The notes below the pieces were generated by a model. The model was not told the origin of the DNA. It saw nothing but the letters and a program-made list of their open reading frames with translations, and made no database searches. A program made the position numbers and the translations under genes. 43,303 nt of DNA from Candidatus Magasanikiibacteriota bacterium (GTDB lineage: Bacteria; Patescibacteriota; Patescibacteriia; Magasanikbacterales; UBA10146): contig JACRFU010000062.1 of the NCBI GenBank assembly GCA_016212585.1, positions 1-43,303 on the forward strand, written 5' to 3'. This document shows, in pieces, positions 1-43,303 of the stretch (position 1 is the stretch's first letter; the number at the start of each line of letters is the position of its first letter).

Positions 1-62
1 AACACAAGCAAATCAACGCAATAATGGATTATGGAGCGCGGTTTCATAAGATTATGTCCATA
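1..62 (+). repeat. Family C palindromic element, partial copy (one arm, cut by window edge)
   Basis: nt 22-62 align at roughly 80 percent with 28949-28988, the right arm of the 28807-28988 palindrome. Shared pieces include the identical 12-mer TAATGGATTATG and the terminal ATGTCCATA. Confidence 0.6.
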
Positions 63-63
63 G

Positions 64-138
64 ACCTCAAAATTTATTCAACAATTCTGTCTCGAACTAT
101 GCGTATTTCGTTACAAAAGCGCATTCGGCGACAGACCC
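64..138 (-). repeat. Family A MITE, half copy (copy 1), abutting the family C arm
   Basis: ACCTCAAAATTTATTCAACAATTCTGTCTCGAA...AAAAGCGCATTCGGCGACAGACCC matches the reverse complement of the left half of full copies such as 8413-8573. The other half is missing. Confidence 0.8.
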
Positions 139-3435: not shown

Positions 3436-3595
3436 GGGACTGTCGCCGAATGCGCTTTTGTAGCAAAATTTCTGAATTTTGAGATAGAATTGTTGAATAA
3501 ATTTTGAGGTTTAACAGCAGTTAAGCCGAAAAATTTTGAAACGATTTTGACCGAAATTTGCCAATGAAGGAGAAATGCTATTGGGGGACAAGTCT
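3436..3595 (+). mobile_element. Family A MITE, copy 3 (subfamily A2, right terminus degenerate)
   Basis: GGGACTGTCGCCGAATGCGCTTTTGTAGC...TTGAGGTTTAACAGCAGTTAAGCCGAAAAATTTTGAAACG... The right end is decayed to GCTATTGGGGGACAAGTCT. It starts 1 nt after the secY stop codon. Confidence 0.8.
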
Positions 3596-8412: not shown

Positions 8413-8573
8413 GGGTCTGTCGCCGCATGCGCTTTTGTAATGAAACGCGCAGATTTCGAGACAAAATTGTTGAATAAATTTTGAGGTTTAATAATTTTTA
8501 AGCTGAAAAATTTTGAAATAATTTTGTCCGAAAGATGCGCGTTGCAATCAAAATGGCATTCGGCGACAGACCC
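8413..8573 (+). mobile_element. Family A MITE, full copy 4 (161 bp) between rplN and rplX
   Basis: GGGTCTGTCGCCGCATGC...GCATTCGGCGACAGACCC. It begins 3 nt after the rplN stop and ends 11 nt before the rplX ATG. Confidence 0.9.
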
Positions 8574-11495: not shown

Positions 11496-12323
11496 TTATT
11501 TACGATGTTGGATTATTAAAAAGTTGCTCCATTTCTTGCGTTTGCGCGTCTTAACCCCCAGCGCAGGCTTACCTTGCGGAGTTTCCGGACGACGCATACC
11601 GATTGGGTTGTGTCCCTCGCCGCCACCGTGCGGATGATCAACAGGATTCATGGCTTTTCCGCGCACTGACGGTCTCCAGCCCATATGGCGTCTGCGTCCC
11701 GCTTTGCCAAGACGGATCAAATTGCGGTCGGGATTGCTCAAAACGCCAATCGTCGCGGCGCATTCTTGGCTCACTTTTCGTAATTCGCCAGAAGGGAGTT
11801 TAAGTGTGGCATACCCCATTTCAACCGCCATCAACTGTGAACTAGTGCCAGCGCCGCGCACAATTTTACCGCCTTGTCCCGCCAATAATTCTATATTATG
11901 AACCATCTGGCCGACCGGAACAAATTTGAGCGGCATACGAGCGCCTGTTTTTACTTCAATGCGATTTTTTGAACTCAACACGGAGTCTCCTGCCGTAATG
12001 CCCTGCGGAGCCAATATATATGACTTCACTTTATCAGCATATTCAATCAATGCGATACGAGCACCTCTGTTGGGATCATATTCAATGGCGTTCACTGTTG
12101 CGGGTATATCATACCGCTGTTGTTTAAAATCCACCAATCTATAAAATGTGCGCGTGCCTCCTCCTCTGTGGCGCACAGTAATGCGGCCGTTGGAACGGCC
12201 GGTGCGCTTCTTGTGCACCATCATAAGCTTTTTCTCCGGTTTGTGTTTGGTGATATCGTCGAACGCATCCACCATAGTGGCGCGGCGTCCGGGAGTTGTT
12301 GGTTTGTATGTCTTAAATGCCAT
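11496..12323 (-). CDS. rplB: 50S ribosomal protein L2
   Basis: True start is MAFKTYKPTTPGRR. The upstream part of ORF 11496-12410 is MITE read-through. Contains RGKAMNPVDHPHGGGEG. Confidence 0.95.
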   Translation of the reverse strand: MAFKTYKPTTPGRRATMVDAFDDITKHKPEKKLMMVHKKRTGRSNGRITVRHRGGGTRTFYRLVDFKQQRYDIPATVNAIEYDPNRGARIALIEYADKVKSYILAPQGITAGDSVLSSKNRIEVKTGARMPLKFVPVGQMVHNIELLAGQGGKIVRGAGTSSQLMAVEMGYATLKLPSGELRKVSQECAATIGVLSNPDRNLIRLGKAGRRRHMGWRPSVRGKAMNPVDHPHGGGEGHNPIGMRRPETPQGKPALGVKTRKRKKWSNFLIIQHRK

Positions 12324-12325
12324 AG

Positions 12326-12487
12326 GGGTCTGTCGCCGAATGCGCTTTTGAAACGAAATGCGCAGATTTCGAGACAAAATTATTGAATAAATTTTGAGGT
12401 TTAATTGCAAATTAAGCTGAAAAATTTTGAAACAATTATGGCCGAACTATGCATATTGCAGTCAAAATGGCATTCGGCGACAGACCC
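12326..12487 (+). mobile_element. Family A MITE, full copy 5 (162 bp) between rplW and rplB
   Basis: GGGTCTGTCGCCGAATGC...GCATTCGGCGACAGACCC. Flanking 5-mers are CATAG (12321-12325, which contains the rplB start codon) and CATAT (12488-12492). Confidence 0.9.
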
Positions 12488-17470: not shown

Positions 17471-17483
17471 ATGCACATATAAT

Positions 17484-17537
17484 GGGTTTGTCGCCGAATG
17501 CCATTTTGACTGCAAAAGCGCATTCAGCGACAGACCC
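17484..17537 (-). mobile_element. Family A mini-derivative (54 bp, both termini, interior deleted), copy 6
   Basis: GGGTTTGTCGCCGAATGCCATTTTGACTGCAAAAGCGCATTCAGCGACAGACCC, flanked by a perfect direct repeat ATAAT (17479-17483 and 17538-17542). Confidence 0.85.
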
Positions 17538-20764: not shown

Positions 20765-20862
20765 CAGACTGTCTGAGAACTGCCATTTTAGAGTTTTTTT
20801 GAAATTTTTTTGGCTAATTTTAACACCGCAATTTTCTAAAAATTGAGTTTCTGGACAGTCTG
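20765..20862 (-). repeat. Divergent short relative of family A (98 bp)
   Basis: CAGACTGTCTGAGAACTGCCATTTTAGAG...TTTCTGGACAGTCTG. Termini are a 9-bp inverted repeat (CAGACTGTC / GACAGTCTG). GACTGTC..GCCATTTT and the TTTGAAATTTTTTTGGCT core are shared with family A. Confidence 0.55.
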
Positions 20863-32090: not shown

Positions 32091-32124
32091 ATGATATATA
32101 AAAAATAACTTATGGCTCAATTAT

Positions 32125-32204
32125 GAGTCTGCCGCCGAATGCTATGCCCGTAACAAAATGTACGTATGCGCATTGCAGTCAAAATTGCATTCGGTGGCAG
32201 ATCC
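32125..32204 (+). mobile_element. Family A internally deleted derivative (80 bp), copy 7
   Basis: GAGTCTGCCGCCGAATGCTATGCCCGTAACAAAATG joined to TACGTATGCGCATTGCAGTCAAAATTGCATTCGGTGGCAGATCC. Flanked by a perfect direct repeat ATTAT (32120-32124 and 32205-32209). Confidence 0.8.
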
Positions 32205-32964: not shown

Positions 32965-33053
32965 ACAAAATGTGGTTGAATGATACACTGAGACGAAAAA
33001 TTTTGAAACAACTATGGCCGAACTATGTCAAAATGGCATTCGACGACAGACAC
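32965..33053 (+). repeat. Family A partial copy 8 (right half, left terminus missing)
   Basis: ..GAAAAATTTTGAAACAACTATGGCCGAACTATG-TCAAAATGGCATTCGACGACAGACAC matches the right half of copy 5. Confidence 0.75.
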
Positions 33054-35287: not shown

Positions 35288-36749
35288 CTATTTCAACTTT
35301 TTTACCCATCCATGGTTTGCGTTCACCTCAACTATATCGCCATCACGCAACACTTCCGTCGCAATCTTGGTACCGATAATGCTTGGAATGCCAAGCTCAC
35401 GGGAAACAATCGCCGCGTGAGAAGTAATGCCTCCTTCACTAGTTACTATTGCCGCGGCTTTTTTCATTGCAGGGGACTGTCGCCGAATGCGCTTTTGTAA
35501 CGAAATTTCCAGATTTCTGGACACAATTGTTGAATACATTTTGAGGTTTAACAGGAGTTAAGCCGAAAAATGTTGAAACAATTTTGGATGAAATAGGGGA
35601 ATTGCAGTCAAAATGGCATTCGGCGACAGTCCCTGCAGTGATATAATCCGGCCGCGTCATGACCGCTACCAAAATATCACCCTGTTTAACTTTGTCGGCT
35701 TCCGTGGCCGAATTAAGTATGCGCACAGGGCCAATTGCTCTGCCGGTTGAAGCGGATAACCCCCTAAAATCATCAACTTGGTCATGTGGTTTTTGCCCCA
35801 AAACCATTTTTTTCAATTCTTCCAAGCACGCGCTTGGTACCACCTCAAACGCTTCTCCGACCACAATAAATCCGGATTTTTTTCTACCTTGCAATTCTTT
35901 TCGCGACGGTTCTCTTTTTGACATAATATCTTTAATTTCTACCGGATAGGCAAATTTCAACTCATCCAATGTATAATCCGTGCGCCGGACAACTTCTTTC
36001 AAAATAGTACAACCCATATCAATGTTAAAATAGGTTGCTTTTTTACACTTATCTTGCCACCATGTAAAATCTTCCGAGATCTGTATGAGCGCGCGCAGAA
36101 GCGCGGACAATTTTACTTTTTTAAACAGCGCTTGTTTTTTTATTCTATTCAAGCGCGGCGTTTCATACAAATGTTTCAATTCCTTCTTTAAATCTTTGCC
36201 GCTTTTTTTCCACGCTCTGATTTCTTCTTGAAAATGCTTCACACTCAACACCTGCGCTGTGATATAATTATTCTTGCTCCAATACGAGCGCTTTTGATAG
36301 GCGACTAAATTATCCTTGGAAACGCCCACTATAATTTTAAGCAGTTCTATTTCCGCCTGATTGCTAAATGATTGATGCACGGGCGCAGTGGCAATGCTAA
36401 AAATTTCAGTAAATTGTGATTCTTTAAATCTCGCGGAATTTTTTGAGCCATATAATTCCTTGCGCAGTAGCGCGCTGATAATCTCGTCCGTGCCCAAAGC
36501 AAAATGATCAATCAAAATTGTTGAAGTGGCGCAATTGATGAATAACGTATAGGTGGTATTCCACACTTCAAGAAGTTGCGCATCGGAACATTTTTTTAAA
36601 TCAATCGCAGGGAATGTTTTCCAAAAATATCGTTCATATATCTGTTCATCTTTTTTCCATTTCTTGAGCAATTTTGTTGAAAGCCGAGGGTCTTTTTTGG
36701 CAAGCTCAACAAACCGTTTTGCCGCACACCGTATATCACCCATTTCCAA
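35288..36749 (-). pseudogene. PEP-utilising-enzyme-like gene (paralog of 38734-40167) split by family A copy 9
   Basis: The upstream part ends ..ILVAVMTRPDYITA and the downstream part starts [28 protein letters not shown]. The intact paralog has ..[42 protein letters not shown], so the 166-nt insertion (161-bp element plus 5-bp duplication) sits exactly between A and M. Confidence 0.85.
35473..35633 (+). mobile_element. Family A MITE, full copy 9 (161 bp, subfamily A2) inside a coding sequence
   Basis: GGGACTGTCGCCGAATGC...GCATTCGGCGACAGTCCC, flanked by a perfect 5-bp direct repeat TGCAG (35468-35472 and 35634-35638). Confidence 0.92.
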
Positions 36750-43161: not shown

Positions 43162-43233
43162 GCATAACTGTCCAAAGTCCTGAAAAATATGCTAAAATAA
43201 AGGCAAAAGTGGTGAAAATTTAATCAAACTACT

Positions 43234-43303
43234 ATGCCAAAAACAAAGTCTATCACAGCTGAAGAGATCATCGGGCTTGTGCCGGATGAAATGCTTGACC
43301 GAT
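43234..43303 (+). CDS. 5' end of an ORF running off the window (MPKTKSITAEEIIGLVPDEMLDR...)
   Basis: ATG at 43234, open to the window edge. Only 23 codons are visible, so no function can be assigned. Confidence 0.3.
   Translation, partial: MPKTKSITAEEIIGLVPDEMLDR

Follow-up and report, generated by a model that had tools for sequence, protein, structure and literature searches.

The 43,303 bp stretch of Magasanikiibacteriota DNA analysed here (the window) includes a 161 bp hairpin at positions 35473–35633 that is bracketed by two copies of TGCAG, and the question raised by this locus is how the hairpin arrived there and what kind of transposase moved it. A sequence-only reading of the window had proposed that this sequence and its relatives, here named family A, are Tn3-derived MITEs mobilised in trans, as they generate 5 bp duplications and their outer ends resemble the Tn3 inverted repeat (IR). 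The view that family A is a MITE that is mobilised in trans and duplicates 5 bp of its target held, but the Tn3 origin was not supported. The window corresponds to contig C41 of a genome assembly of 930,977 bp in 75 contigs with a G+C content of 45% (the source genome). Candidatus Magasanikbacteria GW2011_GWC2_45_8 is a relative from the same genus, which places the source genome among the Patescibacteria (CPR).

Sequence, pairing and alignment define the focal copy as a whole-length hairpin with the termini GGGACTGTCGCCGAATGC and GCATTCGGCGACAGTCCC. Its layout is TGCAG, GGGACTGTCGCC...GGCGACAGTCCC, TGCAG, with the left repeat at 35468–35472 and the right repeat at 35634–35638. The focal copy sits inside an ORF on the minus strand, and the interrupted ORF returned no Pfam match. 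When positions 35473–35638, which comprise the focal copy and one TGCAG, were deleted, the flanks formed a 429 aa ORF that extends from 36743 to 35288. The joined flanks match PF00391, the mobile (phosphohistidine) domain of PEP-utilising enzymes, over profile positions 2–72 of 72 (E=8.9e-25); the match spans the junction, and the domain is complete in the joined ORF. Precise excision thus recovers the entire Pfam domain, which demonstrates that the focal copy inserted into, and split, a gene for a PEP-utilising-enzyme-domain protein (35288–36743, minus strand), and the locus provides direct proof of the 5 bp duplication. The C-terminus of the restored ORF reads ...RPDYITA/....

Three perfect 5 bp repeats had been reported in the window, TGCAG at 35468/35634, ATAAT at 17479/17538 and ATTAT at 32120/32205, and all were confirmed on re-reading; a fourth copy has CATAG/CATAT at 12321/12488 (4/5 identical), as described. 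In the source genome, exact 5 bp direct repeats surround 25 of the 56 family A copies for which both flanks are available, and 10 more copies have repeats with a single mismatch. Repeat lengths of 4, 6 and 7 bp produced 1, 0 and 0 exact matches, respectively, in the same 56 copies, and shifting the boundaries produced none. When left and right flanks from the source genome were re-paired at random, the mean number of exact pentamers was 1.4 and the maximum was 6. Other Patescibacteria genomes gave the same picture, with exact pentamers in 24/49 non-redundant pairs compared with 1.6 expected, and no other length fitted. Exact 5 bp repeats exceed their frequency in shuffled controls approximately 15–18-fold, and this excess is confined to length 5 and offset 0. 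The most common target pentamers are ATAAT (seven copies) and ATTAT (four copies), and A or T is found at 80–88% of positions 2–5. Duplicated pentamers that are not composed solely of A and T include TGCAG, GCTAC, CATTG, GCCAA and ATGGT.

An alignment of 50 full copies revealed that family A is a 161–162 bp MITE with an imperfect hairpin over its whole length, in which the perfect inverted repeat is confined to the outer 18 nt, GGG(T/A)CTGTCGCCGAATGC. The consensus for the 18 nt terminus is GGGNCTGTCGCCGAAT(G/A)C. When the 16 nt core of the terminus, GTCTGTCGCCGAATGC, was sought with up to three mismatches, 15 matches were found in the window, where 0.37 were expected. The same search of the 930,977 bp source genome gave 237 termini. 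Pairing those that face inwards yielded 59 complete copies, of which 44 are 161–162 bp. Another 56 termini belong to copies that are truncated at the end of a contig, and thus the assembly breaks at the family A repeat. A profile search returned 175 intervals of family A or the related family B (see below), which total 22,241 bp, or 2.4% of the source genome. As the median nearest-neighbour identity among family A copies is 96%, we conclude that the copies are young. Most are intergenic, and others lie in genes, at gene junctions or in other family A copies. An Rfam search with family A returned no family at threshold, and the sole RNA matches were to generic hairpins below threshold. Family A has the general features of MITEs: it is small, non-coding and multi-copy, has terminal inverted repeats and duplicates its target. 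The evidence supports a non-autonomous transposon (MITE) that is mobilised in trans.

In addition to the focal copy, the window includes a 162 bp copy at 2461–2622, the flanks of which are no longer identical, a copy at 8413–8573 that lies within a ribosomal-protein gene cluster, and the copy with CATAG/CATAT flanks at 12326–12487. Shorter derivatives are also present. The ATAAT duplication surrounds a 54 bp mini copy (17484–17537) made up of two termini back to back, the ATTAT duplication surrounds an 80 bp copy with an internal deletion (32125–32204), and only the right arm of a half copy is found at 32971–33053. The element at 3436–3595 is a chimera with a family A left terminus and a family B right terminus, GGGGGACAAGTCT. 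At the start of the window, a family A arm that ends GGCGACAGACCC and is followed by ATAAT (63–138) adjoins one end of another element, IS-X (1–62; IR TATGGACATAATCTTATGAAACCG), which is nested at the apex of the family A MITE. At least 10 family A copies have IS-X at their apex. IS-X was absent from the relatives and viral contigs in which it was sought, and its interior was not recovered.

To define the end of the element, 404 termini from the source genome and all fetched Patescibacteria loci were reduced to 112 clusters with unrelated interiors. Positions 16–18, which were not used in selection, are still conserved across the clusters (T in 88%, G/A, and C in 75%). Positions 21–24 are weakly T-rich, and the information content of positions 25–60 is about zero. 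All of the conserved information is in 18–24 nt at each end. Position 4 of the element is variable; it is A in 46% of the 112 clusters, T or A in the source genome, and G or C elsewhere. Elements of just 36–63 bp that consist of two termini recur in several genomes, and 7/12 of these are flanked by exact pentamers; one 37 bp example has ATTAC at both sides. As conservation stops at this point and the 36–63 bp elements retain duplications, the functional end of family A is about 18–24 nt, compared with roughly 38 bp in the IRs of Tn3-family elements and TIMEs. In several Patescibacteria classes, the same 18 nt terminus bounds >100 small interiors that are unrelated to each other.

The case for Tn3 had rested on an 11/12 match between the Tn3 IR and a terminus that was read with a leading G. 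The Tn3 IR used for that comparison was correct, with its 38-mer 100% identical in >5000 plasmids, where it adjoins blaTEM. The leading G is flanking or duplicated sequence, and the element itself starts at GGG. Among the 56 family A copies, GGG is preceded by T in 31 cases, by A in 14, by G in seven and by C in four. In two of the copies cited previously, the leading G belongs to the duplication. With the terminus corrected, the match is offset by one base and falls to 10/11 (GGGTCTGTCGC against Tn3 positions 2–12), and the whole 18 nt terminus is identical to Tn3 positions 2–19 at 13/18 sites. For random sequence at the same offsets, a 13/18 match has p ~1.6e-4, which rises to ~2e-3 when the first four bases are fixed as GGGG. 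Of the IRs that we compared with family A, that of the enterobacterial Tn3 has the highest raw identity, and at the sequence level the likeness of the termini is suggestive but not decisive.

Beyond the outermost bases, the resemblance is shallow. No inner TAAG-type box or 38 bp IR was found across the 112 interior-distinct clusters of family A ends; the sequence-only reading had itself expected that departure from the Tn3 IR past the first 12 nt would weaken its proposal, and conservation indeed ends at nt 18–24 with no inner TAAG-type domain. The same reading had held that the idea would fail if Tn3-family transposases did not exist in the lineage, but they are present. The transposase profile PF01526 was found in 3/151 genomes of the order (G067, G122 and G150), none of them among the 13 that carry the terminus, and phylum-wide in 3/401 genomes (G168, G368 and G376), none of which has a family A terminus. 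PF01526 is absent from the source genome, the 13 terminus-bearing relatives in the order and 14 further terminus-bearing genomes. No unrelated transposase was found flanked by family A termini either in the genome and metagenome searches described below, which was the other outcome that had been named as fatal. Two complete Tn3 elements from Patescibacteria have the IRs GGGTACGATTG... (also GGGTACGATTGTAAAG...) and GGGGGACCGTAAGG..., and the second is flanked by a 5 bp TATTA duplication. Both IRs match family A at 7/18 positions, which is background.

A 5 bp duplication in AT-rich targets is a hallmark of Tn3, and family A shares both the duplication and the target preference. Of the other defining features of Tn3 and TIMEs, it lacks an IR of ~38 bp with an outer GGGG and an inner domain as well as a low copy number, and a cognate transposon was not found in the genomes searched. 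Nested family A copies were found at C54:24790 and C45:11305–11588, and the gaps between neighbouring copies are shorter than 500 bp in 12 cases and shorter than 1 kb in 23. TIMEs (PMC4133298; also IS101) resemble family A in that they are small, non-coding, hairpin-forming and mobilised in trans, have a run of Gs at their termini and insert in AT-rich targets, with duplications of 5 or 6 bp compared with 5 bp for family A. However, TIMEs have 38–40 bp IRs that are nearly identical to those of the co-resident Tn3-family transposon Tn5563a (PMC4133298), whereas family A has a conserved terminus of 18–24 nt, hundreds of copies, some of them nested in one another, and no Tn3 element that matches it. 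TIMEs are usually present in a single copy per genome, which the authors attributed to target immunity (PMC4133298). By analogy, the high copy number, self-nesting and close spacing of family A would run against immunity of the Tn3 type. As the IR architecture, a cognate transposon and the low copy number associated with immunity are all missing, Tn3 ancestry is not supported and we disfavour it.

A second family in the source genome points in a different direction. The interior of family B (~125 bp) is homologous to that of family A (profile positions 6–156), and its termini are AGACTTGTCCCCAAATAA. We found 48 family B termini and 15 paired copies, 12 of which are flanked by 3 bp duplications of the form A-N-T. 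A 3 bp duplication is expected for enzymes of the IS5/Harbinger type. The termini of the two families align position for position (10/18 identical), and A/B chimeras exist. A variant family B terminus in C36, AGACCTGTCCCTTAATAAT, is identical over 19/19 nt to the IR of a 1,021 bp IS from Kerfeldbacteria, and the family B consensus matches that IR at 15/18 positions. The IS encodes a 300 aa DDE_Tnp_1 transposase, for which the best NCBIfam model is an IS5-family model, below its cut-off. The same Kerfeldbacteria genome includes IS1182-family elements with the IR CAGACTGTCCGAGAAC, which is identical to the family A terminus at 11/18 positions (p ~0.007), and a 98 bp MITE with ends of this type is found in the window at 20765–20862. 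Patescibacteria IRs of the IS1182 and IS5 types match family A at up to 10–11/18 positions.

Three related end types, those of family A, family B and IS1182, thus circulate in these bacteria, and two of them trace to the IS5/IS1182 group. MITEs of the IS5/PIF-Harbinger type (family B; IS in Kerfeldbacteria, L162 and L159) are the same size as family A and have a homologous interior, and the IR pattern (G/A)AC(C/T)TGTC...AAT is common to family A and to family B and the IS5-like IS. However, family B makes 3 bp duplications and its ends match a known transposase-bearing IS, whereas the duplications of family A are 5 bp and no partner was found for it in the genomes and metagenomes searched. IS5 subgroups make duplications of 2–4, 8 or 9 bp, and 5 bp is not typical, so family A does not have the duplication length of IS5.

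No inward-facing (+ ... −) long-range pair of termini in the source genome encloses a transposase gene. The ORFs near such pairs, which encode PBP, UvrB, ValRS, LysRS and a toxin-like 1004 aa protein, were set aside as housekeeping or unrelated. A well-assembled Kerfeldbacteria genome, which contains 95 termini, also has no transposase inside a terminus pair. An exact-match scan of a genome collection returned no transposase within family A termini among the at least 105 matches listed; about half of these are chance matches in high-GC genomes, and the rest are MITE-like copies in Patescibacteria. The pattern for an exact-match scan of metagenomes was designed to leave out the usual continuations of MITEs as well as chance matches in high-GC sequence, and no transposase was found inside any terminus pair among the 29 stretches listed. 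Autonomous elements with slightly different ends would escape exact-match scans of this kind, as the 15/18 match between family B and its IS illustrates. Viral contigs gave two matches to the terminus, and both were dismissed as chance matches in high-GC contigs. When 18 terminus-bearing genomes were searched with PF01609 and PF00665, ISs of the IS4, IS5-like, IS1182, IS701 and rve types were recovered, none of them with family A termini.

The terminus is sporadic, with carriers making up 13/151 genomes of the order and 7/401 genomes phylum-wide, and it is abundant in only a few: the source genome with about 186 termini, the Kerfeldbacteria genome with 95 and JAZDNE01, which has many. The classes that it reaches include Magasanikbacteria, Kerfeldbacteria, Falkowbacteria and Azambacteria, and its interiors are without exception small and diverse.

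Losses from the assembly bear on how these searches should be read. When the 150 contig ends were compared with one another, sets of two or three were found to have about 140 nt in common; these shared sequences represent the outer parts of five or more other IS types whose interiors have been lost from the bin. Among these are an IS4-family element and an IS5-family element (GAAYTCATAGYG...). In the window, the left end of this IS4-family element occupies 43163–43303, and the C-terminus of its transposase opens contig C53. A profile for the IS5-like transposase that partners family B had no match in the 151 genomes of the order. As IS interiors are lost and the family B partner is absent too, the absence of a transposase from bins says little. 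A motif resembling family A, GGCTACTGTCGCCAAAC, is found at three contig ends; it was rejected as a terminus, as a longer repeat extends 70 nt beyond it.

We think it reasonably probable that family A is a MITE mobilised in trans by a DDE enzyme that is not a canonical Tn3-family transposase and more likely resembles those of IS4, IS5 or IS1182. A DDE-type transposase supplied in trans would recognise the 18 nt sequence GGG-N-CTGTCGCCGAAT-(G/A)-C, optionally with the T-rich positions 21–24. It would join the element ends to a target cut with a 5 bp stagger, preferring A-T-W-A-T pentamers, and repair of the stagger would produce the 5 bp duplication. We infer the family of this enzyme from its ends: it may belong in or near the IS4/IS5/IS1182 group, the IRs of which share (G/A)AC(T)TGTC...(G/A)AA in these bacteria, and we place it nearer to IS5/IS1182 than to Tn3 because two related end types trace there. 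Its gene may have been left out of the binned assembly, or may be carried by an element with ends that are somewhat unlike those of the MITEs.

Against this, family A could be TIME-like and moved by a divergent Patescibacteria branch of the Tn3 family that has a short IR (18–24 nt) and lacks immunity. Consistent 5 bp duplications genome-wide and across genomes, AT-rich targets, the GGG start and the 13/18 match to Tn3 positions 2–19 (p ~2e-3 given a GGGG start) would all fit, Tn3 transposases do occur in the phylum, including in one complete element with a TATTA duplication, and little can be read from the lack of a transposase in these bins. Nonetheless, we consider this reading unlikely: conservation does not continue past nt 18–24, a TAAG box is missing, the fourth position is not fixed, and duplications still flank elements of 36–50 bp. 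Further, PF01526 is in none of the ~30 terminus-bearing genomes, the known Patescibacteria Tn3 IRs reach just 7/18, hundreds of nested and closely spaced copies contrast with immunity-limited TIMEs, and an IS5-like IS is linked to the sister family B. The proposal that the repeats are structural or regulatory palindromes, REP- or terminator-like, that were spread by recombination and owe their pentamers to AT bias draws on the long hairpin, the mostly intergenic locations and the generic, sub-threshold RNA matches. We give it almost no credence, as the 15–18-fold excess of exact repeats over shuffled controls, seen only at length 5 and offset 0 and including non-AT pentamers, stands against it, and the empty-site reconstruction that restores the Pfam domain effectively refutes it.

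A third alternative is a stand-alone transposase without such termini of its own, either a single-copy, Patescibacteria-specific and possibly domesticated enzyme that would resemble the RAYTs of REPINs but make 5 bp duplications, or one encoded by an unbinned plasmid or phage. That one 18 nt terminus serves more than 100 unrelated interiors in several classes is in keeping with such an enzyme, as is the lack of an autonomous copy in the 95-terminus genome and among the listed genome and metagenome matches. However, exact-match scans would miss autonomous copies with slightly different ends, no candidate gene was identified, and the patchy distribution of the terminus (13/151 and 7/401 genomes) is more in line with ISs that move horizontally than with a host gene that is conserved, and we regard the stand-alone enzyme as rather improbable. 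A more specific version, which we put forward tentatively as an outside possibility, is that GGGNCTGTCGCCGAAT(G/A)C is the substrate of a Patescibacteria-restricted transposase lineage that is not yet linked to an IS family, in an arrangement like that of REPINs and RAYTs but with cut-and-duplicate chemistry. If so, this lineage would need only ~18 nt per end, such that 36 bp elements with two termini could move, and it would make 5 bp duplications and act on >100 miniature interiors of unrelated sequence across several classes, possibly from a single-copy or domesticated gene. The IS4/IS5/IS1182-like DDE enzyme is the explanation that we prefer to these.

Elements of this general kind are known elsewhere. 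bcr1 of the Bacillus cereus group is about 155 bp and is flanked by a 5 bp TTTAT repeat. As described, it is like family A in being a hairpin of ~160 bp with an AT-rich 5 bp flanking repeat and no identified transposase, but its sequence is unrelated and it is found in a different phylum, and we know of no phylum-wide conserved 18 nt terminus that serves many interiors in the case of bcr1. No description of MITEs in Patescibacteria was found in the literature searched, and a literature search with the terminus sequence returned only unrelated primers. Family A is a known kind of element that is new for Patescibacteria in the literature searched.

The ultra-small genomes of Patescibacteria are usually viewed as streamlined. 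Here, one MITE superfamily fills ~2.4% of a 0.93 Mb genome and has inactivated one gene or more, copies sit between ribosomal-protein genes, and an 18 nt end is common to several classes. Identification of the enzyme would show how Patescibacteria genomes get reshaped, and it could prove to be a transposase that needs unusually little sequence at each end. Recognition that the likeness to Tn3 is shallow keeps a wrong family assignment from propagating. A recurring structure in the metagenome stretches consists of two MITEs that bracket a HEPN/nucleotidyltransferase pair.

The family-A terminus also borders elements of 100–174 bp at loci L010, L012, L013 and L020 of two other Patescibacteria genomes, G110 and G016. 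The core of these elements, a GC-rich hairpin GTCATTCCCGC...GCGGGAATGAC, is unrelated to the family-A interior. As the same terminus surrounds this unrelated core, we conclude that one terminus serves many unrelated interiors. Minimal elements of 36–50 bp, made up of two 18-nt termini with a short loop between them, are found at L110:6904-6940, L082:4702-4737 and L186:1040-1089, among other loci. Exact 5 bp duplications flank 7 of 12 minimal elements, which suggests that approximately 18 nt per end suffice for mobility. In three metagenome contigs (L198:8420-10070; also L193 and L207), a 1.3 kb segment lies between two family-A-type MITEs and encodes a toxin-antitoxin-like pair made up of a HEPN protein and a nucleotidyltransferase. 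With a family-A-type MITE on either side, this unit resembles a composite transposon, but its outer pentamers are unequal (TTTAT and TAAAT).

The sister MITE, family B, shares its interior with family A and has different termini, AGACTTGTCCCCAAATAA. In the genome that includes the window, 12 of 15 family-B copies have 3 bp target duplications of the form A-N-T (example copies are at C17:5271-5431 and C2:19743-19903). Sequence comparison revealed that the family-B ends match those of a 1,021 bp IS5-like IS of Kerfeldbacteria (L162:141-1161 and L159:1014-2036). A/B chimeras were found, including the copy at 3436-3595 in the window. The termini of a 98 bp MITE at 20765-20862 in the window, CAGACTGTCTGAGAAC, match the IR that IS1182-family elements carry in Kerfeldbacteria (L157:154-1676 and L161:1329-2749). 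The flanks of this MITE show no clear target duplication.

A second element, IS-X, lies at one identical apex position in at least 10 family-A copies, all of one subfamily. It has a 24 nt IR, TATGGACATAATCTTATGAAACCG, and an apparent TA duplication; its interior could not be recovered. IS-X/family-A junctions occur at window positions 1-138 and at 20 other contig ends, such as the start of C10 and the end of C14. Matching 5 bp duplications allow six left and right contig-end pairs in this genome to be joined (C9-C34, C10-C5, C59-C14, C67-C44, C70-C2 and C75-C36), where approximately one would be expected. IS-X also has a 182 bp MITE, at C34:11016-11197.

An IS4-family IS with IR CATAACTGTCCAAAGTCCTG has its left end at the end of the window (43163-43303). 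This IS is also represented at the end of C68, and the C-terminal 134 aa of its transposase are encoded at the start of C53 (1-446); the remainder of the IS is absent from the bin. Groups of two or three contig ends of this genome have approximately 140 nt in common; these groups mark five or more types of IS, the interiors of which are missing from the bin. Because these interiors have been lost, ISs and transposases are badly under-counted in this genome, as is probably the case for many comparable bins.

The focal family-A MITE interrupts a minus-strand gene at 35288-36743. The reconstructed, uninterrupted product would be 429 aa long and end in the phosphohistidine (mobile) domain of PEP-utilising enzymes, and the insertion separates the catalytic TSHAAI segment from the remainder of the protein.
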